A DNA stretch of 64,000 nucleotides from an uncultured Gammaproteobacteria bacterium (GCA_964553245.1 CAZKJM010000001.1:362667-426666), one strand, 5' to 3'; shown: positions 21,340-36,893, counted from the stretch's first letter. The notes: generated by a model not told the origin, from the sequence alone. Numbers and translations: made by a program.

Positions 21340-21384
21340 AAACGTATTCTATCAAAAAAAATATAATATATCAAACAATATCAA

Positions 21385-21417: not shown

Positions 21418-21421
21418 ATAA

Positions 21422-22216: not shown

Positions 22217-22264
22217 CTTACTGAGGCAGTTAGCTTATTATAGTTAATAAATATTAAATTTCAA

Positions 22265-22317
22265 GGGCTAAAAACGGAGCTCTGTGTGTCGGTCAAGAAC
22301 CATTTGAGGTCATAGTC
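22265..22317 (-). repeat. Family-2 dispersed repeat copy G
   Basis: GGGCTAAAAACGGAGCTCTGTGTGTCGGTCAAGAACCATTTGAGGTCATAGTC; shares head with family 1 and core TGTCGGTC...ATAGTC with copies at 35676, 35728, 36838. Confidence 0.55.
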
Positions 22318-22378
22318 TGTTTTTTCTCCAAAATAAATAAGACGAATGAGACAGTATAAAAATGTCTTAAAAATAAAG

Positions 22379-22407
22379 TTGACATATGCGACTTAGTCGC
22401 ATATAAT
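22379..22407 (+). promoter_or_regulatory. Sigma70-type promoter (TTGACA-17-TATAAT) with embedded 21-bp perfect palindrome ATATGCGACTTAGTCGCATAT = probable Zur operator; transcript likely leaderless
   Basis: TTGACA 22379-22384, palindrome 22384-22404 fills the spacer, TATAAT 22402-22407, ATG of zur at 22414. Confidence 0.55.
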
Positions 22408-22413
22408 AACCTT

Positions 22414-22797
22414 ATGAGTTTTCTTCAAAATCAAAAAACGAGAAAAAACGAAACTAAAAAAGAAATTATTGATCTTCTTTCAAAAACAAAAGCTCCTGTT
22501 GATGTAAATTTTATTATTTCAAAAGTTAAGTCTCATCGGGCAACAATTTTTAGATCCCTTAATAAGCTTGTAAATACCGGAGATATAAAAAGGTTAGACT
22601 TTCAAGAAAAAAAAGCCAGATATGAACTCGCCAAAGATCATCATCACCACCTAATATGCGAAAATTGCGGAAAAATTGAGAAAATCTCAAATTGTATTGT
22701 TTCGAACTTGGAAGAAAAGGTCAATAAAGAGAAGAAATTTTTAATAAAGTCTCATTCTCTTGAATTTTTTGGCTTATGCCATAAATGTCATACTTAA
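22414..22797 (+). CDS. zur: Fur-family metalloregulator, probably Zur
   Basis: Winged-helix N-terminus, HHHHLICENCGKIEKI ... CHKCH metal sites; first gene of znu operon. Confidence 0.65.
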   Translation: MSFLQNQKTRKNETKKEIIDLLSKTKAPVDVNFIISKVKSHRATIFRSLNKLVNTGDIKRLDFQEKKARYELAKDHHHHLICENCGKIEKISNCIVSNLEEKVNKEKKFLIKSHSLEFFGLCHKCHT

Positions 22798-23794
22798 AAC
22801 AATGAAGAAAAATATTCTATTTATTTTTGTAATCTTAATTATTATCGCCGGTTTTTATACTCTGTTTTCATTCTTAAACAAAACTACTACTAATAACTCG
22901 GGAAAAATTGTAATTATAACCACTCTTTTCCCAACTTATGATTTTGCCAAAAATATTGGAGGCGACAAAGTTGATGCTTCTCTACTTTTGCCACCCGGGG
23001 TAGAAGCTCATTCCTTTGAGCCAAAACCAAGCGATGTCACAAGAATTAATCAAGCAAATATTTTTGTTTATACAGGTGAATTCATGGAACCGTGGGCCCA
23101 TGACATTATTGAAGGTGCTAATAAAAAAGTGAGAATAGTTGATGCAAGTACCGGAATTAAACTGTCTGTAGATAATGGCCATGACCATGACCATAATCAT
23201 GAAACGGAAGAGCATAAAGATGAAGAACATTACGCAGAGGAAGAACATCATCATGTCCACAATGGAGTAGATCCTCATATCTGGCTTGATTTCGATAACG
23301 CCATCCAAATGGCAAGTAATATTGAAAAAGCTCTGGAAGAAATTGACCCAAAAAATAAAGCTTATTATCAAGATAATTTAAATAAATACCAACAATCTCT
23401 CTTAGAACTCGATGATACATATAAAGAATCTCTTTCTAATTGTCAGACTAAAACAATCGTATATGGTGGTCATTATGCTTTTGGCTATTTAGCAAAGAAG
23501 TATGGGCTTGAATATGAAGCAGCTCAAGGCTTCTCGCCTGATGCAGAACCAACTGCAAAAGACATGATTTCCCTTATAGAACAAATCAAGAAAAACAACA
23601 TTAAGTACATTTTCTACGAAGAGCTAAGCAGTCCAAAGATTGCGGAAACTTTAGCTAAGGAAACAAGCGCAAAGATGCTTCTTCTAAATGGTGCTCATAA
23701 TTTGTCAAAAGAAGACTATGAAAAAAATACTTCTTATCTAACAATCATGAAAGAAAACCTCGCCAATTTAAAAATTGGGTTAATATGCAATTAA
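22760..23794 (+). CDS. znuA: Zinc ABC transporter substrate-binding protein ZnuA (true start probably M at 22805)
   Basis: Signal/TM, cluster-9 SBP fold motifs, His/Asp/Glu-rich loop DNGHDHDHNHETEEHKDEEHYAEEEHHHVH. Confidence 0.7.
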   Translation: MNFLAYAINVILKTMKKNILFIFVILIIIAGFYTLFSFLNKTTTNNSGKIVIITTLFPTYDFAKNIGGDKVDASLLLPPGVEAHSFEPKPSDVTRINQANIFVYTGEFMEPWAHDIIEGANKKVRIVDASTGIKLSVDNGHDHDHNHETEEHKDEEHYAEEEHHHVHNGVDPHIWLDFDNAIQMASNIEKALEEIDPKNKAYYQDNLNKYQQSLLELDDTYKESLSNCQTKTIVYGGHYAFGYLAKKYGLEYEAAQGFSPDAEPTAKDMISLIEQIKKNNIKYIFYEELSSPKIAETLAKETSAKMLLLNGAHNLSKEDYEKNTSYLTIMKENLANLKIGLICN

Positions 23795-23817
23795 TGTCTG
23801 CAAAGGAAGTGAAGTAA

Positions 23818-23982
23818 ATGAAGTTTTACAATGTTAAAACAAGACAATTTGTCGGGGTTGATGACAGCAAGGTTGAAGTAATAACCATGAAAAATGGGAA
23901 AAAAGCCGCAAGAGCCATTGTAGATGGCATGAAACTATTTAAAATCATGAGCACAGAAGACGCAGTGAAATTAAGCAAGTAA
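23818..23982 (+). CDS. Unannotated 54-aa ORF inside znu operon (MKFYNVKTRQFVGVDDSKVEVITMKNGKKAARAIVDGMKLFKIMSTEDAVKLSK)
   Basis: Open frame between znuA and znuC with plausible spacing; below ORF-track size cutoff; function unknown. Confidence 0.3.
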   Translation: MKFYNVKTRQFVGVDDSKVEVITMKNGKKAARAIVDGMKLFKIMSTEDAVKLSK

Positions 23983-24093
23983 CAGTATTTGCCAAATGCC
24001 TTCGTTCGGCATTTTACACAATATATTTTTCAGAGAGTTTTTATAGAAAAGAACTCTCTGAATTTGGTATTATTAGCTATAAATATTAAAATT

Positions 24094-24843
24094 ATGGATA
24101 CTATTTTAAAAGTTAACGATTTATCAATTCGCTATGAACAAACAGAAGCAATTAAAAATGTTTCTTTTGAAGTTAAAAAAGGCGATTTTATTGGACTGGT
24201 AGGGCCGAATGGCGGAGGGAAAACAACATTAGTAAAAGCTATTTTAGGCCTTATTCAATATTCTGGAGAAATTAATCTTCTAAGTAAAACTCAAAAAAAA
24301 TTTAATTCCTTTTCAAAAATCGGCTATTTACCGCAAAAACAAACGAGCGTTAATCCGCTCTTTCCTGCCTCAGTTAAGGAAGTTGTCTTACTTGGATTAT
24401 TGTCAAGCAAGAAATCTTTTAAAAAAATTAATAAAGAAGATCTGCAGAAAACAGAAAATACACTCGAGACGCTTCACATCTCAAAGCTTAAAAATAAAAT
24501 GTTTTCAGATCTTTCAGGAGGCCAACAGCAAAAAGTATTGCTGGCTCGAGCCCTAGTTTCAAATCCGGAAATTTTAATTCTTGATGAACCCTCAACAGCT
24601 CTTGATCCTAAATCAAGAGAGGATTTTTTTTCTCTTGTTGAAAAACTAAATAAAAAAAATAAAACAACAATTATTTTAATTACTCACGATACCGGATATA
24701 TCGGAAAATATGCCAATAAGCTTCTCTATATCGATAATCAGTTAGTATTTTTTGGAGAAATAAAAAAGTTCTGTCCATCTAAAGATGTTAAGACATGTTT
24801 TGAAAAAAGCGATAAGCATATTATTTGGCATCAACATAAATAA
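24094..24843 (+). CDS. znuC: Zinc ABC transporter ATP-binding protein ZnuC (start taken at internal ATG 24094; track ORF begins 23989)
   Basis: Walker A GPNGGGKTT, signature LSGGQQQKVLLARAL, Walker B ILILDEP. Confidence 0.7.
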   Translation: MDTILKVNDLSIRYEQTEAIKNVSFEVKKGDFIGLVGPNGGGKTTLVKAILGLIQYSGEINLLSKTQKKFNSFSKIGYLPQKQTSVNPLFPASVKEVVLLGLLSSKKSFKKINKEDLQKTENTLETLHISKLKNKMFSDLSGGQQQKVLLARALVSNPEILILDEPSTALDPKSREDFFSLVEKLNKKNKTTIILITHDTGYIGKYANKLLYIDNQLVFFGEIKKFCPSKDVKTCFEKSDKHIIWHQHK

Positions 24844-24846
24844 ACT

Positions 24847-25656
24847 ATGGAATTATATCAATTATTTCAATATGCCTTTATTCAAAAAGCTTTTCTAGCT
24901 GGATCATTTATTGCGATTAGCTGTGCTTGTCTTGGTCTTTTCCTTGTACTTAGAAAGATGTCTTTAATAGGAGACGGATTATCGCATGTAAGTTTCGGAG
25001 CAATAGCCCTAGGACTATTTTTTGGCTTATATCCTTTTTACGTTGCAATTCCTCTGGTTATCATGGCTTCTCTTCTAATTCTAAAAATTAGTGAAAAAGC
25101 AAAAATTTATGGAGATTCTGCAATTGGCATCGTATCAGCATTTGGAATTGCAGGGGGAATAATCTTGGCCAGTCTTTCTAATGGATTTAACGTTGATTTA
25201 TTTAGTTATCTTTTTGGAAACATCCTTGCTGTTAGCACAAATGAAGTAATTACTTCTGTCTTCCTTTCATTGGTTGTTCTGATTACAATTTACTTTTTTT
25301 ATTGGGATTTATTCTCTGTCACATTTGATCTTGAGTATGCAAAAACTACCGGAATTAAACCAAATTTTATAAATTCCCTTTTAACCATTCTCACCGCTGT
25401 TGTCGTTGTTTTGTCAATCAAGGTAGTTGGAATCATGCTGGTTTCTGCTCTTTTAATTTTACCTGCAGTCACCGCTTTGCAAATTTCAAAAAAATTCAAA
25501 ACCACTTTGTTTATTAGCTGCATTACATCTTTTATATCGGTATTCTTGGGAATAGCAATTTCGTTTTTAATTGATCTCCCAACAGGGGCTACAATTGTAA
25601 TGATTAACGCTTTTTTCTTTACAACAGCTTTCTTTTCTAAAAGATTACAACGGTAA
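24847..25656 (+). CDS. znuB: Zinc ABC transporter permease ZnuB
   Basis: 8-TM ABC-3 type permease immediately after znuC. Confidence 0.7.
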   Translation: MELYQLFQYAFIQKAFLAGSFIAISCACLGLFLVLRKMSLIGDGLSHVSFGAIALGLFFGLYPFYVAIPLVIMASLLILKISEKAKIYGDSAIGIVSAFGIAGGIILASLSNGFNVDLFSYLFGNILAVSTNEVITSVFLSLVVLITIYFFYWDLFSVTFDLEYAKTTGIKPNFINSLLTILTAVVVVLSIKVVGIMLVSALLILPAVTALQISKKFKTTLFISCITSFISVFLGIAISFLIDLPTGATIVMINAFFFTTAFFSKRLQR

Positions 25657-25685
25657 AATTATACTTACCAAAAGATCTACTTTTC

Positions 25686-25729
25686 CTAAAAACGGAGCTC
25701 CGAGGGATAGAGGATGTTAGAACCTATTT
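25686..25729 (-). repeat. Family-1 dispersed repeat copy C (full length, contains stop codon of 25724-26176)
   Basis: CTAAAAACGGAGCTCCGAGGGATAGAGGATGTTAGAACCTATTT; stop CTA(rc TAG) at 25724-25726 lies inside AACCTATT. Confidence 0.65.
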
Positions 25730-26176
25730 AGGCTTAACATGCCAAGAGGTTTTTATTGCAGGGAGCTCTTCTCGTATAGCTGATAATCTGTTATTAACTT
25801 GATCTGCAGGGGTTTCATCTTTAAATATTTCTGGAAAGATGATTTTTCTTCCACTTGCTGATTCTGAAGTGAAAACTACACGTGACAGAACAGAACCCTT
25901 ACTTTCAATTACTGCATCAACGGATGTTCCACCTTTATCTTTTAAAGCATCTATAAAAGTTCCTAGCGATTTTTTTCTAATAGTAGACTTTCTTACTCTA
26001 TCCATTATCTTGGTAAATTTTCCTCTAGTTAGATCAACAACCTTAACGCTTTCATCCAATCCTTCAACAATTACTTTAGTTCCTTTTGGGGCTTTAAGAA
26101 TTGTTACTTCCGTAACTGTCCCAACAGGATTTCCATACATATCTTCAAGTCCATGTGGCGTTTCAACTAATGGCAT
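25724..26176 (-). CDS. Hypothetical protein
   Basis: 150-aa ORF, stop embedded in family-1 repeat. Confidence 0.4.
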   Translation of the reverse strand: MPLVETPHGLEDMYGNPVGTVTEVTILKAPKGTKVIVEGLDESVKVVDLTRGKFTKIMDRVRKSTIRKKSLGTFIDALKDKGGTSVDAVIESKGSVLSRVVFTSESASGRKIIFPEIFKDETPADQVNNRLSAIREELPAIKTSWHVKPK

Positions 26177-26220
26177 AGTTGGGTGATTATATTGTTCAAA
26201 CAGTAAAAAGTCAAATTGAG

Positions 26221-26267
26221 GCTAAAAACAGAGCTCCGAGGAATGGAGGATGTTAGAACCTTATTTT
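26221..26267 (-). repeat. Family-1 dispersed repeat copy D (full length)
   Basis: GCTAAAAACAGAGCTCCGAGGAATGGAGGATGTTAGAACCTTATTTT; stop of 26261-26596 at 26261-26263 inside repeat. Confidence 0.65.
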
Positions 26268-26596
26268 CCTAATTTCGTATTCAAATTTTGTTTTTTTTCA
26301 ACAAAAGCTGTTTTTTTATTTTCCTTCCTAATTGGTCCGTGAACTTCATTTGGAAACATTTCTTGATATACATTATCTAAAACCCTTGGCTTATCTCCTG
26401 TTGCTATATTGGCGATTGCTCTTAAATAATGACTTCCCAAGCCTTGTTCGGTAAAAATTACCCAGCTGTCTTTTTTATAACCGTATCCTTCCAATATTTT
26501 TTGAGCCGCTTCTGGACTCATTCCTGGAATGCCTTTTACCGCTTCTCGTCTCTGTTCTTCAATTGGCCTTGGTGTTTCTTTCGAATCTTCAAGCAT
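26261..26596 (-). CDS. Hypothetical protein
   Basis: 111-aa ORF. Confidence 0.4.
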   Translation of the reverse strand: MLEDSKETPRPIEEQRREAVKGIPGMSPEAAQKILEGYGYKKDSWVIFTEQGLGSHYLRAIANIATGDKPRVLDNVYQEMFPNEVHGPIRKENKKTAFVEKKQNLNTKLGK

Positions 26597-26627
26597 AAAC
26601 TGATTATATCAGAAGTTCGAAGCATGA

Positions 26628-26675
26628 GGGCTAAGAATGAAGCTCCGAGGGATGGAGGATATTAGAACCTATTTT
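26628..26675 (-). repeat. Family-1 dispersed repeat copy E (full length, variant GGATATTAGAACC)
   Basis: GGGCTAAGAATGAAGCTCCGAGGGATGGAGGATATTAGAACCTATTTTT; stop of 26662-27306 (TTA rc TAA at 26662-26664) inside repeat. Confidence 0.65.
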
Positions 26676-27306
26676 TGTGATAAATATTCTCATTGCTGAA
26701 GGAACTCTTGTTAACAACAACACTTCTACGTCCAGATGTATTAATTTTCAAAAGCGTATTAACCTCAATGCCTGTTTCTTCTTTTATTTTATTTAGGCCT
26801 TCTTTTTCTACTCTTTCTGCTATTGCTATTGCTCTTATTATTTTAACATTCATTTGCTGAAGCGTTTTAATCATCGCAGTCATTGTTTTCCCAGAATCTA
26901 TGATATCATCTACGATGACTACCCTATCATTCCCCAAAAGTCCATTAAAATAAAGAGACATGTTCTTATTGTAAGATATTGAAAATTTTACCCCTTTTTC
27001 CCCTGGTATCTTACATGGATTTTGTTTTGCCAAACAAAAAGGAAGATCAACCGCTAAGGCTAAACAGGCAGCGATATATCCTCCCCTTTCTTCTTCTCCA
27101 ACTATCTTGTTTATCCTGTTTAAATCTGTTCCTAAACTATCTATAACCCCATTAATTACCTGCTTCATGATTAAAGGTGTTGTTGAAGGAATATGATCAG
27201 TTAAAGTATTTATTAAATACGTATCCCTTTCATTAATCTTAATTATTTTTTGATTATCGAATGCCTTAATTAAATCTTTCATTAAAATTAAGTAAAGATT
27301 ATACAT
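26662..27306 (-). CDS. Type I phosphoribosyltransferase domain protein
   Basis: PRPP-binding motif VVIVDDIIDSGKTMTAM. Confidence 0.55.
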   Translation of the reverse strand: MYNLYLILMKDLIKAFDNQKIIKINERDTYLINTLTDHIPSTTPLIMKQVINGVIDSLGTDLNRINKIVGEEERGGYIAACLALAVDLPFCLAKQNPCKIPGEKGVKFSISYNKNMSLYFNGLLGNDRVVIVDDIIDSGKTMTAMIKTLQQMNVKIIRAIAIAERVEKEGLNKIKEETGIEVNTLLKINTSGRRSVVVNKSSFSNENIYHKNRF

Positions 27307-27360
27307 ATAGACTGTGGTTTACGCAAGAATGTATACAGATATTAATAAGATAACCGTTTA

Positions 27361-28566
27361 TTAAATTACTTTTTCAAGCAATATAACACTTTTCCCTTTT
27401 GCTTTTTTTCGAAAAGCTATTCTAATATTCTTACTTTTTGCTATTGTTCCAAAAAGGACAGATATTACCGTTGAACTAGAAGAAAGACACATTAAGCCAT
27501 TATTACTTAATAAATCTGTAAATTGCTGCAGGTATAAACCATATGTTAATATTTTTTGTTTTCTAGGAACAATACCGATAATTAAGTTGAATTGTTTTTT
27601 GGGAATTTTAAATTCAACTTGATGATAAATAAAGGCTTTTATTCCATATTTCTTAAGATTATGTCTTGCGGTAAGTAATGCTAATAAATCCCTATCTACT
27701 AAATGAACTGCATTTCTCTGAAATGCTTTACATGCTACTAATGGAATATATCCTTGTTTTACATTAAAACATATAATTTCATTAGTATTGTTGTTTTTAA
27801 TTTTTTTTATATTATCTATTAATAAGCTTGTTTCGTAGTTTAATTGATCAAACTCAGGCAAATTGTAACTAACATCTAGTTCATATTCACAATCCTCAAA
27901 CCTTAACTTATTTTGCCCACGAAAGAATAATTTCCTCCCAAAAAGAAGTTGCTTTGGTTTCAATAGTCCTTTATGGTTAATAAATTTATAGTGATAAACA
28001 TGATGCCCGGGCCAATTCTGATGGTAAAGTATTGCAATATCGTCGTCTTTTTCTAGGAACTGTGAAACTAGATCATTAATATCATCAATAACCACTATTG
28101 CCATCGTTCCATTTTCCGTTAAATACCTTTTTGCTTCCTTAATCATATGTTTCAGAGTCGCCTTGCCTACTTTAGCTGGAATATTAGAAGTAATTAAATT
28201 AAACTCATTAGTAGCAATTTGCTCATACCCTAAGCTAGGGTAAACCTTAACATTGTCAACATGATTAAGCTTAACGTTTTCCTTGCAGTATTCTATTGCT
28301 AAAGCATCATAATCGACCATATGTACTTCTGCTGACGGACATATTTTTTTTAACACAATTCCTATTGGCCCATAGCCACATCCTAAATCAAGAGCTTTTT
28401 TATAAGAATTTATCTTTTGATAAAGCAGAGACCGGATTAATCTTTGAGTACCATGATCAATGTTCTGTGAACTAAATAAGTCTTGAGATACCTTAAATTT
28501 TAATTCTTGATCAAGAAATTTATATAAAATTGTTTTTTTATAAAATGATTCTGTTATATTCATCAC
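27361..28566 (-). CDS. Class I SAM-dependent methyltransferase (MTS/RsmC-like, two-lobed)
   Basis: DLGCGYGPIGIVLKK motif I; 401 aa with second degenerate MTase-like half. Confidence 0.5.
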   Translation of the reverse strand: MMNITESFYKKTILYKFLDQELKFKVSQDLFSSQNIDHGTQRLIRSLLYQKINSYKKALDLGCGYGPIGIVLKKICPSAEVHMVDYDALAIEYCKENVKLNHVDNVKVYPSLGYEQIATNEFNLITSNIPAKVGKATLKHMIKEAKRYLTENGTMAIVVIDDINDLVSQFLEKDDDIAILYHQNWPGHHVYHYKFINHKGLLKPKQLLFGRKLFFRGQNKLRFEDCEYELDVSYNLPEFDQLNYETSLLIDNIKKIKNNNTNEIICFNVKQGYIPLVACKAFQRNAVHLVDRDLLALLTARHNLKKYGIKAFIYHQVEFKIPKKQFNLIIGIVPRKQKILTYGLYLQQFTDLLSNNGLMCLSSSSTVISVLFGTIAKSKNIRIAFRKKAKGKSVILLEKVI

Positions 28567-29579
28567 TGGTAGATATCTTTGGAAAATGCCTTCTGTGGGC
28601 TAATGTTTTGGTTATTGTACCACAATATATGGGTTTTTATAATTTGATCTATTTGTGAATGCTTGGTTTTAAAACCTAAAACCCTATTGAGCTTAAAGGG
28701 ATCTGCTATTAAAATTTCGGGATCACCTAGTCTTTTGCCCTTGAATATAATTGATATTTTTTTAGATAAAAGTTTTTCACAGGTTTTAATAACCTCTAGA
28801 TTCGAATACCCCTTGCCTGTACCAACGTTAAAAACATTGAATTTTTTAATTTTTCGAGACAACATTGCTCTAAGTGCAACTACATGAGCTTCTGCTATAT
28901 CGAGAACGTGAACATAATCTCTTATGCATGTTCCATCTTTGGTATTATAATTATTACCAAAGATCAATATGGGTTCTTCGTTTATGGCATTTTTAATAAC
29001 ATTTGGGATAAGATGAGTTTCTTTTTTGTGGTTTTCCCCAAGATTACCATCTAAAGAGGCTCCAGCAACATTAAAAAACCTTAGGCAAGCAACGTTTAAC
29101 GTATCTGATTTTGATACATAACGTAAAAGGTTTTCTGTTTCTAATTTTGTTTCCGCATAAGGATTAATCGGATGAGGAATCATATTCTCATTTATTTTTT
29201 TACTAGAACTATTTCCATATATTGAACAACTAGATGAAAAAATAAAATTTTTAATGTTTGCATTCATACATTCTGAAATTAAAATATAAGATGCTACGGA
29301 ATTATTCTCATAATATTTCATGGGATTCTTATAGGATTCCTCTACCGATGCACAAGCAGCAAAATGCATAATTGCGGAAAACCTATATTTGTTTAAAATC
29401 GTTTTAAGTAAAGCTTTGTCTTGAATTTGCCCTTGATAAAATTCTGCCCTAGAATTGATTGCTGACCTATCGCTATTTTCAAGACTATCAACAACAACCA
29501 CCTTGTAACCAAGATCTATTAATAGCTTCGTAGTGATTGCTCCTATATATCCTGCTCCTCCAGTAACTAAAATGTTCAT
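28563..29579 (-). CDS. galE: UDP-glucose 4-epimerase family (GalE-like NAD-dependent epimerase)
   Basis: MNILVTGGAGYIGAITTKLL Rossmann motif, catalytic YAETK. Confidence 0.6.
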   Translation of the reverse strand: MNILVTGGAGYIGAITTKLLIDLGYKVVVVDSLENSDRSAINSRAEFYQGQIQDKALLKTILNKYRFSAIMHFAACASVEESYKNPMKYYENNSVASYILISECMNANIKNFIFSSSCSIYGNSSSKKINENMIPHPINPYAETKLETENLLRYVSKSDTLNVACLRFFNVAGASLDGNLGENHKKETHLIPNVIKNAINEEPILIFGNNYNTKDGTCIRDYVHVLDIAEAHVVALRAMLSRKIKKFNVFNVGTGKGYSNLEVIKTCEKLLSKKISIIFKGKRLGDPEILIADPFKLNRVLGFKTKHSQIDQIIKTHILWYNNQNISPQKAFSKDIYQ

Positions 29580-29621
29580 AATGACATAAATTATACTATA
29601 ATACGCGTTAATATCTATATT

Positions 29622-30479: not shown

Positions 30480-31593
30480 TATGAAAGCATTAACAATAGC
30501 AGAAGCTATAAATAAGCACAATAATGACTATTCAAATTTAGAAAATAAGTTTACTAAAAAATATGGCTTTTCTATCAATCTTGACCCTTTTCATCCACCA
30601 ATATGGGCGAGAAAATCAATAGTAAAATCTATTAGTGTAGTTATTCCTTCTTATAATAGCTCTAACTCAATTGTCACCTGTCTTTATGCTATAGAAAAAA
30701 GTAGCTTTAATTATAAATTCCCAGAAAAATTAGAAGTTATAGTGGTAGATGATGGTTCAACAGATAACACATGGGATAAGCTAATATCACAAAATTATAA
30801 CTTAAACTTAATGTTAATTAAGCAAAAAAACTATGGACAAGCCCAAGCTTTAAATACGGGCATCAGTAAAGCAAAGGGAGAAATTATTGTGTCTTGTGAT
30901 TCTGATATGATTTTATCGTATTACACATTAGAACATTTTTCATTAAGGCACTCAGAATGCCCAAATGCTTTATTTGCTGGCTTTAGGCACGATACTCATG
31001 TTTCTGACGTAAGAGTTGACGAAAACTATATAAAAAGGAACGGGCCGCATAGATACCCAATCTTCATAGCTGACGAAAGGCTTAATTTTCCTCATAAAGA
31101 CTTTTATAGCTCAATGTGTATTAGTACAAATCATTATAAAGATTTTAGAAATGGAAAAAAATTATATATGCCCAATAATAAAGAATGGCTTTTGCCAGAT
31201 CTTGTTTTCGGAGCTTTATTTAGTTTGAGTAAAAATGTTTTTACACAAATAGGTGGCTACGATGAAAGATTTAAGGGCTGGGGGTGCACAGATGGCTTCT
31301 TAGCTGCAAAAGCTATTTCTACTGGAAGTTTTATTATCCCTTTGTATTGTGCATCGGGATTACATATACACCATAAAGACAGAAGCAATAAAAAAAATAG
31401 TGAATTTCAGAATAATAGAAAAAAGTTTTATCGATTTATAAAAAATGATAAAACGAGTCACTATAGAGACTACTTAAAACATGCTTATAGGCGGATAGAG
31501 GAAATAAAACTAATTAAACATGGAAAAAATAATGCAAATAAAGCAGCAAATAAGCATAGAGCCTTAGGTGAAAACATCTTGAAATATAACTAA
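30472..31593 (+). CDS. Family 2 glycosyltransferase
   Basis: SVVIPSYNSSNSI ... LEVIVVDDGSTDNT ... DSD motifs of GT2. Confidence 0.6.
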   Translation: MFNMKALTIAEAINKHNNDYSNLENKFTKKYGFSINLDPFHPPIWARKSIVKSISVVIPSYNSSNSIVTCLYAIEKSSFNYKFPEKLEVIVVDDGSTDNTWDKLISQNYNLNLMLIKQKNYGQAQALNTGISKAKGEIIVSCDSDMILSYYTLEHFSLRHSECPNALFAGFRHDTHVSDVRVDENYIKRNGPHRYPIFIADERLNFPHKDFYSSMCISTNHYKDFRNGKKLYMPNNKEWLLPDLVFGALFSLSKNVFTQIGGYDERFKGWGCTDGFLAAKAISTGSFIIPLYCASGLHIHHKDRSNKKNSEFQNNRKKFYRFIKNDKTSHYRDYLKHAYRRIEEIKLIKHGKNNANKAANKHRALGENILKYN

Positions 31594-31594
31594 T

Positions 31595-32638
31595 ATGAAT
31601 AAATTAAAAATAGCAATAATCTCAAATTTTGAATATCATTGTGGATCAAGCAATACTATTTTAGGCTATCTTAAGGCTTGTAAAAAAAAAGGTATTGACC
31701 TCCGATTATCCGAACTTGGCAACATTGATAATGTTGGAAAAGAAAAATTTCCCATCGCTGATTCTTCATGGAATCCAGATTTAGCGATTATTGTATTTGA
31801 ATCGTATCAGTTCTTATCAGAAGCAAAGATTTGTAAAATAATTTCAAGAATTCCAAGAACAAGGAGAATTATCATTGATCCAGATGCAAAATATTCTACT
31901 CCATGTCATTACAAAAATGACTGTAACCATAAAAACAATAACGAATATATGAAATGGCATGATTTATATAACTGTCTCTCTGATACTATATTGCAGCCAT
32001 CCCTAGTAGGATCTCGTACATTAAACGTTCATACTTTTTTATATTTCGGAATGGATAATATGAAGCAAACAACTGCAAAGACGAGACTTTATGATCTGAT
32101 ATATATTGGAAACAACTGGTTTCGTTGGCAAGATATGTCTAAGTTAATAAGAAAAACACAAACAATCAGAGAAATATTGCCAAAAATTGCAATTGGTGGT
32201 CGTTACTGGAATGAAGAAAATATGAATAATTTTAGCTATGCTACGTTTTCTAATCCTAAATACCTAGTTAATAATAATATCGATTTGTTAGGAGTAATTC
32301 CTTTCGGGAAAGTTGAATCAACCATGAGTCAGGGGAAAATAAATCCAATATTCATTCGTTCAATATTAAATCACATGAATTTAGTTACTCCAAGAATGTT
32401 TGAGACTTTTTGTGCTGATACAGTTCCAATAGTACCCTCCTATTTCAAAGAAGCAGAAACGTTGTATGGAGAAAAAATAAAAGAATTAATCTTTTCGGGA
32501 AACAATACCAAAGAAAAGCTTATTGACATTGTTAAAAACAATAATTATTATAGCAACTTAACTAATGAGATCAAGAATGAGCTTTTTAAGAAACACTCCT
32601 ATGAACAAAGACTAAAGGAATTGTTAAATTTTTTATAA
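31595..32638 (+). CDS. Hypothetical protein in glycan cluster
   Basis: 347 aa, soluble, Cys/His-rich; translationally coupled to GT2. Confidence 0.35.
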   Translation: MNKLKIAIISNFEYHCGSSNTILGYLKACKKKGIDLRLSELGNIDNVGKEKFPIADSSWNPDLAIIVFESYQFLSEAKICKIISRIPRTRRIIIDPDAKYSTPCHYKNDCNHKNNNEYMKWHDLYNCLSDTILQPSLVGSRTLNVHTFLYFGMDNMKQTTAKTRLYDLIYIGNNWFRWQDMSKLIRKTQTIREILPKIAIGGRYWNEENMNNFSYATFSNPKYLVNNNIDLLGVIPFGKVESTMSQGKINPIFIRSILNHMNLVTPRMFETFCADTVPIVPSYFKEAETLYGEKIKELIFSGNNTKEKLIDIVKNNNYYSNLTNEIKNELFKKHSYEQRLKELLNFL

Positions 32639-32646
32639 AGAAATCT

Positions 32647-33771
32647 ATGAAAAAAATAATTCTAACTGCACAAGACTTCGCTTATGGACCAATTGGTAAA
32701 TTACTTGATCTAGTTTCACACATGGAAAATAAGTTTTTTGAGCTAGTATTTATTGGTTTTGGAACATCTTTGCAACTTGCAAAAAAACATAAGTTTAGCA
32801 AGGTATACAAAATAGATACGGAATTGAGCAAGAACAAGAATAAATTAAAAAACATCGTCAAAGATGCAGATCTTTTAATAAGCTCCATGGATCTTCCAAG
32901 CTTAGAAATCGCACAAGAGTTGGGGATAAAAAATGTTTGGATAGATTGTTTATTTTGGTTTTGGGATGAAATTCCAAAGATTGCCCAAAAAGCGGATCTT
33001 TACATAGCAGAAATATCTATAAATAATAAAAAAAATTTAAAAAAATTTAAAAAAAAAATTAATAACTTACTAATGGTTAATACTATTTTACCAAAACTCA
33101 ATAAGAAAAAAGTTGAAAAACAGGTCCTAATTTCCCTTGGAGGAGCTGAAGCAACTCACTGTTATCAAATAGGAAAAGATACCTATTTCCCTTTTATTAT
33201 GACAGAGATTTTATTAAAATATGTTGATTGGTCATGTTTTGACAAAATATATTTAGCAACCAATCAAAGAATTTTGTCAAAACTAAAAGGATTGTTTAAA
33301 AAAACTAAAATTATCTTCTGTTGCCTAGAGCACACAAAGTTTGTAAATACCTTATCCAATTCAGAAGTGACATTAATAACACCAGGACTTGTAACAACCC
33401 AAACAGCTTTCTATGCAAAAACCCCTGTACTTTTTTTACCTGCGTCAAACAATAGCCAATATTTACAACTGGAGGAATATCGTAAGGAAGGGCTTGCTAA
33501 GGCTTCTGTTTCACTGTCTGATTTTATTGGAAAATTAGATTTTTCTAATAAAAGAGAGGCTGAAGCAAATGAAATGGTAATTAATCAAATAAGCTCCATT
33601 AGGAACAATACTTTTGTGAAAAAAGCCATTGGGGACAAAATTGATAAATTACTCAAGGATAGAAATCGTTGGGCTCAAAACGCCGTTAATGTTGGCAGTA
33701 ACTATATTTATAAACGAGGAGCAAATGGGGCGATTCAGGCACTAAGAGCGATAGAAAGTTTAATGCGCTAG
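32647..33771 (+). CDS. Hypothetical protein in glycan cluster (possible GT-B-like)
   Basis: 374 aa soluble protein; no confident motif. Confidence 0.35.
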   Translation: MKKIILTAQDFAYGPIGKLLDLVSHMENKFFELVFIGFGTSLQLAKKHKFSKVYKIDTELSKNKNKLKNIVKDADLLISSMDLPSLEIAQELGIKNVWIDCLFWFWDEIPKIAQKADLYIAEISINNKKNLKKFKKKINNLLMVNTILPKLNKKKVEKQVLISLGGAEATHCYQIGKDTYFPFIMTEILLKYVDWSCFDKIYLATNQRILSKLKGLFKKTKIIFCCLEHTKFVNTLSNSEVTLITPGLVTTQTAFYAKTPVLFLPASNNSQYLQLEEYRKEGLAKASVSLSDFIGKLDFSNKREAEANEMVINQISSIRNNTFVKKAIGDKIDKLLKDRNRWAQNAVNVGSNYIYKRGANGAIQALRAIESLMR

Positions 33772-33782
33772 TTATTACTTAC

Positions 33783-34382
33783 ATGAATACACAAGCTTTA
33801 GTTAGAAATAATTATAATAAGATATTTAAAATTTATTCTGAGCAAAGACATAAAACGAAAAATGATTACTATCTTAATCTATTCAATAAACTACTAAAAA
33901 GAAACTCAACGATATTAGATCTAGGTTGTGGCTGCGGGAAACCTGTCTCAGAGTTTTTTTTAAAGAGAAAACATAAGATTGTCGGTTTAGACATTTCGAT
34001 AAAACAAGTTGAATTGGCGAAAAAAAATTTTCCTAAAGAAAGTTTTTTCGTAAGAGACATAGCTAATTTAGAATATAATGAGTTTTCTGTAGACGCAATT
34101 GTATCTTTCTATACAATATTTCACATAGCACGTAACACGCAGGAAGAATTATATAGGAAGATTAACTCTTTTATGTACAGCGGTGGAAAAATATTATTAA
34201 CATTGGGATCGTTTGAATGGGAAGGTATTGCAAATTTTCATGGAGGGAAAATGTACTGGAGTCAATTTGGGAGAAAAAAAAATATAAAATTATTAAAAAA
34301 TGCTGGCTTTAATATTTTATTAGAGGAAATTGATAAAAATGACGAATTTAAACACCAAATAGTTATTGGTGAAAAAATATAA
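33783..34382 (+). CDS. Class I SAM-dependent methyltransferase
   Basis: ILDLGCGCGKPVSEF motif I, VDAIVSFY motif. Confidence 0.55.
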   Translation: MNTQALVRNNYNKIFKIYSEQRHKTKNDYYLNLFNKLLKRNSTILDLGCGCGKPVSEFFLKRKHKIVGLDISIKQVELAKKNFPKESFFVRDIANLEYNEFSVDAIVSFYTIFHIARNTQEELYRKINSFMYSGGKILLTLGSFEWEGIANFHGGKMYWSQFGRKKNIKLLKNAGFNILLEEIDKNDEFKHQIVIGEKI

Positions 34383-34498
34383 CCAAAATTAGTTTAAAAA
34401 AAACTTTCTAAACAAATCGTAGATCTTCAATTGTGCGACATGAGCTATAATATTCCTAATGACTGGTAATACCCTATTTTACGTTTATATCGTTGAAT

Positions 34499-34532
34499 GC
34501 TCCGTGGGATGGACGATGTTAGAACCTATTTT
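34499..34532 (-). repeat. Family-1 dispersed repeat copy F
   Basis: GCTCCGTGGGATGGACGATGTTAGAACCTATTTT, 9 nt downstream of stop of 34541-35620. Confidence 0.6.
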
Positions 34533-34540
34533 ATTTCCTA

Positions 34541-35620
34541 TTAACTTGTCTCTGGCTTTTGAGAAAGAGAATCATTCCATAGATCTAATAAATCATCAGG
34601 TCGCTTGGTATGTTCAAATTTCCCTGCTTCTACCATTTTCATAATTTTATATTCAATCCTTCGCCCAATCCAATCAGTAATTTTATCAAGTCCTTGAGGA
34701 AATGGCCTTTTAATCTCGGAACTTGCTTTTTCTAGAATATCTTTTGTATCAGAATCTTCTGTAAAGACCTCTTCAATTTCCAGTATTTTGTTGTTAATTA
34801 TTGACTGTAAAATACTCTCTTGATTATCTGAATAAGCTGCGGGTTCAAGAGGAGGCTTGTATCCTTTTATTCTTCTAGAAAGACCTTTAGCTAGCCCTTT
34901 CTTAGCAAAAACAATATCTAACAAGTCTTTTTTGGGAATATAATCTCTGCCTTCCTGGGTTTTTCTAGTTGCATCTTCTAATTCTGCTGTAAATTCAACA
35001 GAAGGTAAAACATCATATCTATAAGGGGCGCTTTTAAGCTTTTCCCATTGTTTCCTGTAATATTCATCTCTTTTTTCTCTTCGAGTTTGAGCGTCTTCAT
35101 ATAGACTTCTTCCGCCTTTTTGTAAAAATTCTTCCACTTTTGGCCCTACCTCAGCTCGTGCTTCTGTCCATGACATACCCTGGGCAACATAATTACCATA
35201 TATTGCTGCATGCCTAAGCGCTGGGTCTTCTCCCCTAAGCTGTCCTGATAGTAAAGAAGCTTTTTCTGCAGTTGGAGATGCAAAACGATAATCTCCTCCA
35301 GCTCTACGACTAAGAACTGCTAACCCCTGACTTAATATTAACAAGCTTGGGCTATCAACAACTCCATATACTCTACGAAAGTGTTCAGCTTTTTCAATAG
35401 GAATTACTATTCCAAAGGGATCTTTGCTGCTATCCTCTGAGTCAAGTATTAGTGTTCCTAGTCCTCGATTGTCTAAGTCTTTAACTACACCAAGAAATGG
35501 CAAACGTTCTCCTTTTTGTTCTTTTCTGCTAAAAGAGGATTTAATATCTGCTTTTAATTTACCAAATTGTATTTCGCCTGGAGCTTTTGGTCGCTCTGAT
35601 ACACCTTCTCCGACTTCCAT
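34541..35620 (-). CDS. Hypothetical protein (charged, less AT-rich)
   Basis: 359-aa ORF flanked by family-1 (3') and tandem family-2 (5') repeats. Confidence 0.4.
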   Translation of the reverse strand: MEVGEGVSERPKAPGEIQFGKLKADIKSSFSRKEQKGERLPFLGVVKDLDNRGLGTLILDSEDSSKDPFGIVIPIEKAEHFRRVYGVVDSPSLLILSQGLAVLSRRAGGDYRFASPTAEKASLLSGQLRGEDPALRHAAIYGNYVAQGMSWTEARAEVGPKVEEFLQKGGRSLYEDAQTRREKRDEYYRKQWEKLKSAPYRYDVLPSVEFTAELEDATRKTQEGRDYIPKKDLLDIVFAKKGLAKGLSRRIKGYKPPLEPAAYSDNQESILQSIINNKILEIEEVFTEDSDTKDILEKASSEIKRPFPQGLDKITDWIGRRIEYKIMKMVEAGKFEHTKRPDDLLDLWNDSLSQKPETS

Positions 35621-35675
35621 ATATCAAAATTAGTATCTAATATAAAATATATTTTGTCAAACTAAAACTAAACCT

Positions 35676-35727
35676 GAGCTCCGCATGTCGGTCTAGACCC
35701 GTTTCGGGTTATAGTCCTATCTGGCTC
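35676..35727 (-). repeat. Family-2 dispersed repeat copy H1
   Basis: GAGCTCCGCATGTCGGTCTAGACCCGTTTCGGGTTATAGTCCTATCTGGCTC; internal hairpin ACCCG-TTT-CGGGT. Confidence 0.55.
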
Positions 35728-35763
35728 TATGTGTCGGTCAAGAATCATTCAAAGTCATAGTCG
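35728..35763 (-). repeat. Family-2 dispersed repeat copy H2 (tandem, truncated head)
   Basis: TATGTGTCGGTCAAGAATCATTCAAAGTCATAGTCG directly abutting H1. Confidence 0.5.
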
Positions 35764-35834
35764 TTCAGGCCTAAATCTTTGAACAATAAACAACTCTTCA
35801 GTATAATTTAAAATGCTATAATGCGAATAAGTCT

Positions 35835-36176
35835 ATGAAAAATTTCATATCGCTTCTTATTTTAGTTATTTTACTTTCTTTCTTTATAACAACTAATTCT
35901 TCTCCAGTCTCGATTTACATAGGCCCATATATATTTAATGTCCCTTTTTCAATAGCTTTAATACTCCCTCTTTGCATAGGCCTTTTAATTTTTACAGTTG
36001 TTTATTTAGCTAAGGTTAGAAGAATAGAATCTGTAATTAAGCACAATGAAAACGAAATAAATGATCTGCAAAATTCTATTACCCAGTTAAATAAACAAGT
36101 ACATCAATTAAAAATAGAAAATAATAAACTAAAAACCAGACTTGGAGATAAATCATTTGACGATGAATCTATATGA
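35835..36176 (+). CDS. Small membrane protein with C-terminal coiled coil (LapA/DUF1049-like)
   Basis: Two N-terminal TM then heptad-rich LQNSITQLNKQVHQLKIENNKLK. Confidence 0.35.
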   Translation: MKNFISLLILVILLSFFITTNSSPVSIYIGPYIFNVPFSIALILPLCIGLLIFTVVYLAKVRRIESVIKHNENEINDLQNSITQLNKQVHQLKIENNKLKTRLGDKSFDDESI

Positions 36177-36697
36177 TCGAATCCCTGCTTAAGCTTTGGC
36201 GTAAGTTTAATTTCTCTAAAAATTTGCAACTTAGAATTATGCGAACCATAAATGCCCAATTTTTAGTTGGGGTAACAGGAGTTATTTTTAACAATAACAA
36301 TGAGGTCTTGTTGTTTAAACATTCGTATAGATCGATTGCTTGGAGCTTGCCAGGTGGGTACATGAAAGGCAAAGAGCATCCAAAAGAAGCATTAGAAAGA
36401 GAAATTAAGGAAGAGTCTAATTTTACAGTCAGCATAGATTGGCGGATGAAAATAAGAACCGATAGACAAACTTCTAGGCTAGATATTCCTTACATAGGAA
36501 CATTTATTGGAGACTCTTTTAAACCTTCCGCAGAGGTCATTGAATTCGGTTTTTTCTCTTTGGACAACCTGCCACATATAAGAACTGACCAACTTTTTCT
36601 GATAAATAAAGCCTTAGAGGAAAGAAAAATATTCTTTAGTACAAAAAAGCTAGCTCCGATTGAAAAAGCTAAAAAGTCAGAAATTGCTAATTTGTAG
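36173..36697 (+). CDS. NUDIX hydrolase
   Basis: Nudix box GGYMKGKEHPKEALEREIKEESN. Confidence 0.6.
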   Translation: MIESLLKLWRKFNFSKNLQLRIMRTINAQFLVGVTGVIFNNNNEVLLFKHSYRSIAWSLPGGYMKGKEHPKEALEREIKEESNFTVSIDWRMKIRTDRQTSRLDIPYIGTFIGDSFKPSAEVIEFGFFSLDNLPHIRTDQLFLINKALEERKIFFSTKKLAPIEKAKKSEIANL

Positions 36698-36837
36698 TCT
36701 CGCTTATAACTTGCTTTTCGGGATTTAATTTTACACAAAGTAAGTTAAAAATACTCTGAAGCTAAAGTTGTTTAAATCCTATATGCTCTGTGCATCAGTC
36801 AAAAAAATTTTTCGGCTTTAGTTATATTATCCAGGAT

Positions 36838-36893
36838 CTGGCTCTGCATGTCGGTCAAGACCAGTTTAGGGTTATAGTCCTACTCGGCTCGAG
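36838..36893 (+). repeat. Family-2 dispersed repeat copy I at left edge of the less AT-rich island
   Basis: CTGGCTCTGCATGTCGGTCAAGACCAGTTTAGGGTTATAGTCCTACTCGGCTCGAG. Confidence 0.55.

Follow-up and report, generated by a model that had tools for sequence, protein, structure and literature searches.

A repeat beside an intron-containing tRNA-Asn gene in a Levybacteria-like bacterium as a probable attachment-site module for mobile DNA

The 64-kb stretch of DNA analyzed in this study (the window) comes from a CPR, Levybacteria-like bacterium and carries short intergenic repeats, one of them at the edge of an integrated island. The original prediction had offered recombination sites, a small RNA or a MITE as explanations, and the question raised by this locus is which of these the repeats might be. 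Scanning the window with the pattern GCTCYGYRTGTCGGTCWAGA revealed matches at 22279, 35678, 35724 and 36841, on the plus strand every time, and no match was found in 100 shuffles; the four predicted family-2 copies, including the tandem pair 35678/35724, are therefore real. Repeat finding regrouped the same four copies (family D2), and they align without gaps as GCTC-N4-TGTCGGTC-W-AGA-N10-GTYATAGTC. Among 24 aligned family-2 copies 16 columns are invariant, and the invariant blocks, CGGTC.AGA and T.ATAGT, reach 35-40 bp from GCTC. The family-2 units of the window and the segments beside them are as follows.

22265-22278, plus strand: left arm 'type A' (AGGGCTAAAAACGGA)
22279-22320, plus strand: family-2a unit, GCTC TGTG TGTCGGTCAAGAACC ATTTGAG GTCATAGTC TGT (nhmmer E=1.8e-16)
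22321-22366, plus strand: 'module C' (..AATGAGACAGTATAAAAATGTCT..), found after some family-2a units
35678-35723, plus strand: family-2b unit, GCTC CGCA TGTCGGTCTAGACCC GTTTCGG GTTATAGTCC TATCTG
35724-35771, plus strand: family-2a unit, tandem partner of 35678-35723
36785-36835, plus strand: degenerate family-2c unit (…TAGTTATATTATCCAGG), absent from the original prediction
36836-36886, plus strand: family-2b unit with head ATCTG-GCTC (unit proper 36841-36886), chromosomal, B arm of attL

On the minus strand the type A arm reads TTAGCCC, followed by the TTGAAA-N16-TATAAT promoter of gene 21422-22216. A block of ~110 nt as at the 22265 region, made up of family 2, TTAGCCC, promoter, 5' UTR and ATGACAGAA, precedes an unrelated ORF in the related locus L009, and module C comes after family 2a also in L002, L005, L009, L025 and L028. 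The tail of the unit at 35678-35723 continues into the next GCTC; this tandem junction (35719-35727) is ATCTGGCTC, which is also the sequence of the island's junction on the tRNA side. The degenerate unit at 36785-36835 shares 36 of 51 bases, ungapped, with a family-2c unit, and the same tail stands before tRNA-Asn at an unoccupied site in L003.

The related family 1 is represented in the window by six copies, which repeat finding grouped as family D1.

19577-19598, plus strand: family 1, partial; overlaps the stop codon of leftward gene 19598-20290
21382-21418, plus strand: family 1; 5 nt off the stop codon of leftward gene 21422-22216
25692-25730, plus strand: family 1; TAG stop of leftward gene 25724-26176 inside
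26229-26266, plus strand: family 1; TAA stop of leftward gene 26261-26596 inside
26637-26675, plus strand: family 1; TAA stop of leftward phosphoribosyltransferase gene 26662-27306 inside
34497-34533, plus strand: family 1; 8-10 nt from the stop of leftward gene 34541-35620

An opposite-strand stop codon lies under family 1, or within 10 nt of it, in 16 of 17 copies. Genes 21422-22216 and 34541-35620 have a family-1 copy behind their 3' end and a family-2 copy in front of their 5' end, exactly the bracketing that had been described; the former gene has almost no detectable relatives and the protein of the latter no known ones. The proposal that the two families are variants of one element also held: GCTC is the start of both, they stand in tandem in L021 and L036, they have the same set of left-hand neighbours, both occur in every related locus, and the family-1 head noted for copy 22265, GGGCTAAAAACGGAGCTC, is present in the family-1 copies 25686 and 26222. 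Judged by these shared parts, the two families are modules of a single system.

A small structured or cis-regulatory RNA transcribed from the units, a reading already disfavoured, is highly improbable. The units are intergenic, and one copy could form a short stem (ACCCG-TTT-CGGGT), for which partly compensatory changes had been claimed. Over 24 copies, however, 65% of cells pair, a value reached by 194 of 500 column shuffles; compensatory change was found in one cell only, and RNAalifold gave 0 pairs. No Rfam match was obtained even at E<=10, and single-copy folding z-scores ranged from -2.4 to +1.1 over both strands, which is ordinary stability without covariation. What is conserved is the sequence (the 16 invariant columns), not the pairing. 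In family 1, head and tail boxes pair in some copies only, and many copies have no head box. A MITE is not supported either: terminal inverted repeats are not evident in the aligned units (judged by alignment, with no dedicated search), and the copies are not dispersed, being confined to one tRNA flank.

All 11 copies of the window lie on the plus strand between 19.5 and 36.9 kb; the remainder of the 64 kb and the 9.4 and 4.3 kb beyond it contain none. In L002/L005, L003 and L009 the copies, too, are found on the 3' side of tRNA-Asn and are oriented alike relative to it. A strict pattern run against 185,579 species genomes gave matches in two Levybacteria genomes, on their tRNA-Asn contigs, and on one short contig, and nowhere else. 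The tRNA-Asn(GUU) gene comes after dnaG-rpoD, and on that side of the tRNA both genes are conserved (rpoD at 92-96% amino-acid identity), while 3' of the tRNA nothing is common to the four genomes compared. The search for further copies that the original prediction had called for thus found them in related genomes, with flanked genes that differ between genomes. The repeat units, which stand just upstream of promoters, are 85-93% conserved between genomes, against 71-83% DNA identity for neighbouring essential genes, a level of conservation unexpected for inert scars.

Analysis of the island provided the link to recombination. Its features and those of the adjoining tRNA gene are given below.

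36886-36890, plus strand: GGCTC crossover core of attL
36891-36961, plus strand: P' arm of the element (GAGAAATGGGTACAATTTCGGACAACTGACTGG…), 85-87% identical in L038 (344-424) and L039 (123-182)
36891-52199, no strand assigned: integrated element, 15.3 kb, ~40% GC against ~30% in the host
50593-52233, plus strand: large serine recombinase, Resolvase + Recombinase + Zn_ribbon_recom (PF00239, PF07508, PF13408)
52166-52198, plus strand: P arm of the element (AAAAGGACGCTTTGTTGCCTCTGCGTCCCATCT)
52199-52203, plus strand: crossover core GGCTC of attR; on the opposite strand these are positions 71-75 of tRNA-Asn
52198-52478, minus strand: tRNA-Asn(GUU), B' arm of the primary attB, with a group I intron inside

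GGCTC at both island junctions is the reverse complement of the tRNA end, and homology with the L038 and L039 P' arms, whose conserved start is GCTC followed by GAGAAATGGGTACAATTTCGGAC, begins right after GCTC 36887-36890. From its sequence, the island is an integrative element inserted at the 3' end of the intron-containing tRNA-Asn (exon 1 52478-52445, intron 52444-52239, exon 2 52238-52198). Besides the recombinase it encodes an S26 peptidase fusion, an HTH_17/MerR protein, a ResIII/TnsA-like protein, an N6_N4 methylase, a 1141-aa protein and a LOOT RNA; for a 181-aa protein the gene table holds a precomputed PycTM match, which a Pfam scan did not reproduce. The recombinase gene ends 30 nt past the core, its last ~10 codons crossing the core into the tRNA antisense strand, and a second recombinase did not turn up among the ORFs of the window that were scanned or listed. 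Read in the tRNA sense, the P arm is a hairpin and T-run terminator just past the tRNA; together with ATCTGGCTC it is nearly identical in 8 related loci. The family-2 copy that had been placed exactly at the left island border does abut the island but is not the island's own, since the island begins after GCTC 36887-36890; unit 36841-36886 is evidently the chromosomal arm of the left junction, outside the island. Demonstrable insertions in the window come to this one junction only, and the GCTC head of the units is what real serine-recombinase junctions use, which bears out the suggestion of recombination sites. The original prediction is partly confirmed in what it observed and partly supported in how it was interpreted.

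Comparison of related loci revealed which arms meet at GCTC. The host-side right arm next to this recombinase family is tRNA-Asn in six cases (the window, L038, L041/42, L043/44, L048 and L049/50). L045 has a pseudo-tRNA end in that place, L006 a family-2b unit, which serves as B' arm beside the recombinase's P arm, and L039/40 a family-1-like arm set against a stop codon. Element-side arms are kept among related elements and host-side arms vary with the host, the tRNA stems themselves differing from host to host. At L003, an unoccupied site with no element, a family-2c tail is followed by ATTTGGCTC and tRNA-Asn, with the caveat that this left arm is a 2c unit and not 2b. The left arms seen were the AGGCTAA type, the TATATCAAACAAT type, family-2 tails, the recombinase P arm and arm 'F', a second terminator-bearing left arm linked to a brnTA block. 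Each left-arm type is joined to several right arms (tRNA-Asn, pseudo-tRNA, family 1, 2a, 2b), and this reassortment always breaks at GCTC.

The relation of the units to tRNA-Asn resides in their head. Reverse-complemented, (AT[CT]TG)GCTC gives the 3' terminus of tRNA-Asn, GAGC-CA(GAT), and (G)GCTC covers the complement of the last paired bases, the discriminator base and the first C of the CCA end. The likeness of the 3' part of family 2 (GGGTTATAGTCC...) to a tRNA T-arm/acceptor was not upheld, because alignment of family 2 to tRNA-Asn was not significant in either orientation; the true tRNA link of this family is at the opposite end of the unit, on the other strand. Family 1, in an anchored alignment with the 3' end of tRNA-Asn, gave p~0.005-0.009. 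When the best match to the T-loop 9-mer ATTCGAACC was sought over all offsets, in right arms only, 7/7 tRNA arms had the 9-mer beginning 11 nt from GCTC, and in 3/3 genuine P' arms the best match fell at offset 16 (6/9 bases). The T-loop-like motif of family 1, GTTAGAACC, was likewise at offset 16 in 8/9 copies (7-8/9 bases), and family 2 gave a weak match, 5/9 at offset 11. The zinc-ribbon-domain motif of serine integrases lies 5 bp further outward in attP than in attB half-sites (PMC3783163). The family-1 motif, 5 bp further out like that of the element's P' arm, therefore suggests attP-type geometry.

We hold it moderately probable that both repeat families are attachment-site modules in a hotspot of integration 3' of tRNA-Asn(GUU). 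This reading builds on the junctions, the recombinase, the unoccupied site, the alternative partner arms, the 5-bp shift, the co-orientation, the clustering and the variable genes. (G)GCTC would be the cut-and-rejoin point of a large serine recombinase family widespread in CPR bacteria. At the primary site the tRNA 3' end would be the arm right of GCTC; in a family-2 unit the arm right of GCTC would replace the tRNA, and the tail (…TAGTCCTAYNYG) would be the left arm for the next GCTC, so that a row of units plus the tRNA would form attB-like landing sites. The resident 15.3-kb element would have gone in where the tail of unit 36841-36886 met the tRNA. Family 1, with its attP-type geometry, would close single-gene blocks at their far end, set against the stop codon, and copies 22279 and 35678/35724 would be older junctions in which a promoter-bearing block arm, GCTC and a family-2 arm follow one another; the gene blocks there have no or almost no detectable relatives. 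Family-2 units are arms of real junctions at 36841-36886 (B, attL) and in L006 (2b, B'). At 22279, 35678 and 35724 we only infer the family-2 arm role; the older copies may have arisen by such recombination, or may still recombine, and the enzyme moving the small blocks and the multiplication of tandem units belong to the same inference.

Several observations speak against this reading. Family 2 is not significantly tRNA-like and its T-loop-like match is weak. Its invariant blocks exceed the usual serine-integrase half-site, which suggests a different ligand or role. In the small gene blocks the left arms are unlike the recombinase P arm, so that a different enzyme may be at work there. The conservation of the units above that of neighbouring essential genes, the reconstructed attP and attB, with no dyad symmetry above shuffled controls, and the single demonstrable insertion in the window also count against it. 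The position of family 1 at stop codons and of units upstream of promoters would also fit transcript 3'-end formation or insulation.

An alternative, which we regard as rather unlikely, is a lineage-specific mosaic intergenic repeat of the BIME/REP or pneumococcal BOX kind, with a role in gene expression: family 1, in the gene sense, would be a 3'-end/terminator or mRNA-stability element, family 2 with TTAGCC an insulator or upstream promoter element, and the serine recombinase would merely have adopted one repeat as its target. The BIME/REP repeats of E. coli and the BOX repeats consist of short modules in variable order, intergenic and mostly after genes, and are palindromic and/or dispersed genome-wide. 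The modular mosaic order of the units, their conservation above that of flanking genes and the stop-codon position of family 1 agree with this, as does the C-rich, G-poor character of family 1 read in the gene sense in a region where canonical hairpin/T-run terminators are not enriched (12 found vs 9.2 expected). TTAGCC and a -35/-10 promoter come after the units, the promoter often so near the ATG that the mRNA would be leaderless. However, an expression element should follow genes genome-wide, including the plus-strand genes of the window, whereas copies occur on one flank of one tRNA gene wherever the context is known. Unlike BIME/REP and BOX, the units are non-palindromic and have no stable fold; family 2 has no fixed orientation to the nearest genes, and a terminator role does not predict a family-1 shift of 5 bp that matches a genuine P' arm.

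A cassette system of the integron kind, with family 1 in the role of attC, family 2 as an attI-type receptor, a recombinase acting in trans and cassettes moved one at a time, we consider improbable. As with attC and Vibrio VCR, the repeat is immediately 3' of a gene and often holds its stop codon; as in cassette arrays, the copies are co-oriented and the cargo is mainly genes of unknown function, their proteins without known relatives, and toxin-antitoxin pairs. Gene-family 1 arrays with 34-45-nt spacers (25692-27306), the brnTA block at 88-93% across three genomes in differing neighbourhoods, and GCTC as the point of arm reassortment also suit cassettes. Integron attC is an imperfect palindrome folding (R''-L''/L'-R') on a single strand, but no attC-like hairpin was found in the units, and neither the window ORFs that were scanned nor the gene tables contained an integron integrase (tyrosine recombinase). 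Moreover, each would-be cassette has its own promoter, ordinary operons (zur-znu, glycosyltransferases) break up the arrays, and no excised or duplicated cassette with identical ends was seen.

For the attachment-site reading, two further known systems are close parallels. As in the A118/LI, Bxb1 and phiC31 sites (attB, attP, attL, attR, pseudo-attB), the recombinase gene adjoins one junction; as in large serine integrase sites, a short core is present at both junctions, element-side arms are conserved and host-side arms variable, the motif of the attP-type arm is displaced outward by 5 bp relative to the attB-type arm, and secondary sites resembling the primary one are also used. Unlike the usual sites, the primary site here lies at the very 3' end of a tRNA gene, the host has conserved, tandemly iterated surrogate sites (family 2), and family 1, with its attP-type geometry, ends small gene blocks. 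Serine-integrase attachment sites have imperfect dyad symmetry about a central dinucleotide; the sites here, known from sequence alone, show no clear dyad symmetry above shuffled controls, with a local optimum on the TC of GGCTC that is within shuffle range (reconstructed attP 10/24, attB 12/24).

According to a published model of tRNA-anchored islands, successive integrations leave att repeats (10.1101/2020.12.28.424599), and the pattern of the window matches it. As in the tycheposon islands of Prochlorococcus, the tRNA is at one border with the newest element beside it and older material outward, att repeats of one orientation are spread along the island, and the cargo varies by strain; large serine recombinases are used by some tycheposon elements (10.1101/2020.12.28.424599). 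Tycheposon repeats are plain partial tRNA copies, whereas here two derived, conserved families are common to several genomes and a likeness to the tRNA is detectable in family 1 alone; the host here belongs to the CPR bacteria, and its tRNA contains a group I intron. Overall, our analysis suggests that the family-2 repeat most likely serves mobile DNA as a reusable docking site beside tRNA-Asn, and that the other copies most likely mark the borders of small gene blocks, several of them without known relatives.

Analysis of the window revealed four family-2 copies, at 22279, 35678, 35724 and 36841, all on the plus strand and correctly placed in the original prediction. A repeat search of the window returned the identical four copies (D2) along with six copies of family 1 (D1), a second short repeat with a GCTC head, and the family-2 pattern gave no matches in 100 shuffles. 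The family-2 units align ungapped as GCTC-N4-TGTCGGTC-W-AGA-N10-GTYATAGTC. Profiles from all known copies found no additional unit in the 64 kb, and none in the 9.4 kb to its left or the 4.3 kb to its right. All 11 units of the window are co-oriented and lie at 19.5-36.9 kb, on the 3' side of a tRNA-Asn gene; the same geometry was found in L002/L005 (a single 17-kb contig), L003 and L009, where labels of this kind denote related loci fetched from other genomes and metagenomes. The features are as follows.

Features of the window (coordinates, strand, description)
21386, 22279, 25695, 26232, 26640, 34500, 35678, 35724, 36841: GCTC heads
36785-36835: degenerate fifth family-2 copy, 36 of 51 bases identical
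36886-36890 and 52199-52203: GGCTC at the two island junctions
47875-48747, minus: gene of 290 aa
48851-48961, minus: LOOT RNA (RF03000), 77.8 bits, full length, within the integrated element
50593-52233, plus: large serine recombinase, last gene of the island
52478-52198, minus: tRNA-Asn(GUU) gene, right end of the 40%-GC stretch

Conservation of family 2 resides in the sequence, with 16 invariant columns. The helix first proposed for its centre did not hold up, as 65% of cells pair, the level also reached by column shuffles, and the 24 copies contain a single compensatory cell. Rfam gave no match to the units even at E<=10, minimum free energies of folding were ordinary (z-scores -2.4 to +1.1 for 11 constructs on both strands), and RNAalifold predicted no pairs for the 24 copies; a structured RNA was rejected on these results together with the pair counts. 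An attC-like palindrome was likewise rejected for family 1 because most copies do not have the head box; in some copies the head and tail boxes (AGGCTAA and TTAGAACCT) can pair, and one change is compensatory. Canonical terminators were not enriched at the units.

Comparison of the junctions placed the island precisely. The element-side arm P' begins at 36891 (GAGAAATGG…; GAGAAATGGGTACAATTTCGGACAACTGACTGG…) and is 85-87% identical in L038 and L039, where the matching sequences precede the recombinase genes by about 9.7 kb. In all three (window, L038, L039) this conserved arm starts directly after a GCTC, and the element therefore spans 36891-52199. A left crossover at the 9-bp ATCTGGCTC (36836-36844), with the family-2b copy as the island's own P' arm, was rejected because the true P' arm starts after the second GCTC (36887-36890). 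The family-2b copy at 36841-36886 is chromosomal and forms the host-side left arm. L003 represents the unoccupied arrangement, with a family-2c tail, then ATTTGGCTC, then tRNA-Asn. Dyad symmetry of the reconstructed sites, shown below, did not exceed that of shuffles.

Reconstructed attachment sites
Empty attB, join 36890/52200: …TAGTCCTACTCG-GCTC-CCCCGCGAGG
Circular attP, join 52199/36891: …GCGTCCCATCTG-GCTC-GAGAAATGG

An independent assembly of identical sequence, L001 (ENA ERZ27257500 k141_16500), covers about 34394-52338 of the window; one end falls about 100 nt from a family-1 copy and the other inside the tRNA intron, and these breaks could stem from assembly problems or from a heterogeneous population around these elements.

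Protein searches found more than 2,500 relatives of the recombinase at E<=1e-20, with Roizmanbacteria, Woesebacteria and Minisyncoccia among the source names. Junctions were compared across nine distinct related elements. In the window, L038, L041/42, L043/44, L048 and L049/50, …GCGTCCC-ATCTG-GCTC closes the recombinase gene and tRNA-Asn comes next. The recombinase-side GCTC is followed by a pseudo-tRNA end in L045, by two family-2b units in L006, and in L039/40 by a family-1-like arm (GCTC-CCGTGTGGGA…GAAC) directly adjoining a leftward gene's stop codon. Family 2 occupies the place of the tRNA, L006 being the direct case. The recombinase reading frame runs across the crossover core. The integrated form ends in …LRPIWLPREDSNLEP (546 aa), its last codons taken from the antisense strand of the tRNA gene, and the reconstructed circular form would end in …LRPIWLCMSVKTSLGL (547 aa); about ten C-terminal residues therefore depend on the integration state. 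Elsewhere in the element, the LOOT RNA lies just upstream of the 290-aa gene, and the block 47875-48959 is 73% identical in the related elements L043 and L038, which suggests that this RNA is part of the conserved backbone of the element family carrying this recombinase.

The tRNA-Asn gene is interrupted by a group I intron of about 206 nt (Rfam RF00028, 76 bits); comparison with the L009 gene, which has no intron, places it between anticodon positions 35 and 36. ARAGORN reports no tRNA in the window because this intron splits the anticodon loop. Intron-bearing genes also occur at L002 982-1263 and L043 ~11570-11800; among the Levybacteria-like genomes, the intron is present in the window, L002 and L043/44 and absent from L003, L009, L038, L041, L048 and L049. 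Group I introns occur in bacterial tRNA-Leu, -fMet, -Arg and -Ile; we know of none in tRNA-Asn. On the other side of the tRNA gene rpoD and dnaG are conserved, and nothing on its 3' side was common to the four genomes compared. Three genes, for an HTH protein, a CobW-like protein and an MgtC/DUF4010 protein (52469-56115, minus), separate tRNA-Asn from rpoD in the window, whereas the gap is only 330-430 nt in L002, L003 and L009; the 5' side is therefore variable too.

Several kinds of left arm were identified.

Left arms ending at GCTC
AGGCTAA + 3-7 nt: on the other strand, TTAGCC and then a promoter
TATATCAAACAATRTCA: promoter-bearing too
Tails of family-2 units
Recombinase P arm
Arm F: with a brnTA block, 88-93% identical in L004, L005 and L028

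Every kind joins several right arms (tRNA-Asn, pseudo-tRNA, family 1, 2a, 2b), always at GCTC. In the sense of the tRNA, the P arm and arm F carry a hairpin and T-run just past the core, and both are predicted to be terminators for whatever occupies the place of the tRNA. The brnT/brnA toxin-antitoxin block with arm F occurs in differing neighbourhoods (L005 5024-5752, L028 813-1540, L004 1735-2285), and its GCTC partner is family 2b, family 2a or other sequence; the partner of arm F itself is family 1 in L002, whereas in L009 it is a pseudo-tRNA end.

Repeat units are arranged head to tail in the related loci, and three family-2 subtypes were distinguished.

Family-2 subtypes
2a: …GGTCAAGAACCATTYRRGGTCATAGTC
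2b: …GGTCTAGACCCGTTTRGGGTTATAGTCCTAT
2c: tail …CATAGTTATATTATCCAGG

In L021 and L036 a family-1 unit directly follows a family-2 unit; both families are therefore modules of one system, which bears out the early suspicion that they are related. A scan of one genome per species with the strict family-2 pattern found only Candidatus Levybacteria MFNH01, JACRFQ01 and one 36%-GC contig binned as Gammaproteobacteria. Metagenomes yielded 31 loci, of which about ten low-GC loci are real and about 20 were discarded as chance matches inside high-GC genes; the single match among viral contigs was also chance, in high-GC coding DNA. L004 (CAZUZF010000036.1), a 7.7-kb contig of 36% GC assigned to 'uncultured Gammaproteobacteria', bears units of both families and the brnTA block, ~90% identical to their counterparts on Levybacteria contigs, and is probably a misbinned CPR contig. 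For CPR bacteria, the literature searches turned up no account of these repeats or of the recombinase/tRNA-Asn system.

In serine integrases the motif read by the zinc-ribbon domain is placed 5 bp further out from the centre in an attP half-site than in an attB one (PMC3783163). The tRNA T-loop 9-mer ATTCGAACC was slid along all right arms. It starts 11 nt past GCTC in 7 of 7 tRNA-Asn arms; in genuine P' arms offset 16 scores best of all offsets (TTTCGGACA, 6/9, three of three elements), and it is also the best in eight of nine family-1 copies (GTTAGAACC, 7-8/9). Family 2 matches weakly, 5/9 at offset 11. Anchored at GCTC, family 1 significantly resembles the tRNA 3' end (p~0.005-0.009), and family 1 therefore has an attP-type geometry. 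Family 2 showed no significant similarity to the tRNA end in local or anchored alignments, and its derivation from a decayed tRNA 3' half was rejected; a match of family 2b (plus orientation) to the tRNA 5' half (p=0.017) was lost after correction for six tests.

The data show one resident insertion, the junctions of its relatives and the motif geometry. On the reading with the best support, families 1 and 2 are probably attachment-site modules of a tRNA-Asn integration hotspot. The crossover core would be GCTC, the family-2 units would form a row of attB-like landing sites, and family 1 would be an attP-type arm left behind at the distal ends of small gene blocks. That the older copies are active, which enzyme moves the small blocks and how the tandem units arose are matters of inference. 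The growth logic is that of tRNA islands built by successive integration (10.1101/2020.12.28.424599), and the site architecture that of serine integrases (PMC3783163); the locus is unusual in that the site copies are conserved, tandemly iterated families common to several genomes.

The main rival takes the units for a mosaic element of gene expression, of which the recombinase merely makes a target. In 16 of 17 copies family 1 overlaps the stop codon of a gene on the opposite strand or lies no more than 10 nt from it, the units are linked to promoters, and conservation extends past the usual half-site, all of which fit an expression element. The genes bracketed by units have their own promoters, and several of these lie so near the ATG that the transcript would lack a leader. 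A 110-nt block (window 22208-22317, L009 1052-1161) is 81% identical and comprises family 2, TTAGCCC, TTGAAA-N16-TATAAT, the 5' UTR and the first three codons ATGACAGAA; the ORFs that follow are unrelated (264 vs 284 aa, BLASTP E=0.48), the break falling at about codon 4. All copies, however, are confined to one flank of one tRNA gene, and we regard the expression element as an unlikely explanation.

Six leftward genes (19598-22216, 25724-26596 and 34541-35620, minus), each with a promoter of its own, encode 111-359 aa at 35-37% GC vs ~30% around them. None has a Pfam family above the curated cut-off; the 359-aa protein has one marginal match (FAM192A_Fyv6_N, 20.9 bits), and its open frame is far too long for chance at this base composition. 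To follow possible cassette movement, the bracketed proteins were searched for relatives. Those encoded at 34541-35620 and 25724-26176 had none in 5.8 billion proteins, 21422-22216 had only two weak partial matches in 1.84 billion cluster representatives, and none of the three had relatives in the fetched loci. Flanked genes at other loci include RelB/YafQ, BrnT/A, AbiEii, subtilases and hydrolases. Nearby, a perfect TTGACA-N17-TATAAT promoter (22379-22413, plus) with an embedded palindrome ATATGCGACTTAGTCGCATAT, which looks like an autoregulated operator, precedes a Fur-like gene and a putative zinc-uptake operon (22414-25656), both named from sequence only; the window also has Pfam matches to a ZIP transporter (16586-17347) and a CobW-like protein (53359-54681).

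Beyond the attachment-site modules of a hotspot, it is conceivable, though rather doubtful, that CPR bacteria (Microgenomates) possess an integron-like gene-capture platform at tRNA-Asn, operated by large serine recombinases, with families 1 and 2 as the sites at which cassettes recombine. A single-gene cassette would carry its own, often leaderless, promoter and an attP-type family-1 arm mimicking the tRNA end; most cassettes would encode proteins without known relatives. They would enter successively at GCTC cores, the tandem family-2 units serving as a self-renewing row of attB-type landing sites. Unlike integrons, such a platform would have neither a tyrosine integrase nor folded attC sites.

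CPR bacteria have tiny genomes, and how they gain genes is little understood. The locus provides a concrete route of gene gain, in which recombinases of a very large family target the final bases of tRNA-Asn, and conserved site modules beside that gene part defence genes, toxin-antitoxin pairs and genes that have no relatives. Should the modules be only scars, this is an ordinary yet well-resolved case of an island growing beside a tRNA gene. Active surrogate sites would explain how a streamlined genome gathers variable genes at one place, and would supply natural variants of attB and attP, in which the 5-bp motif shift is visible, for a serine-integrase family testable as a genome-engineering tool.
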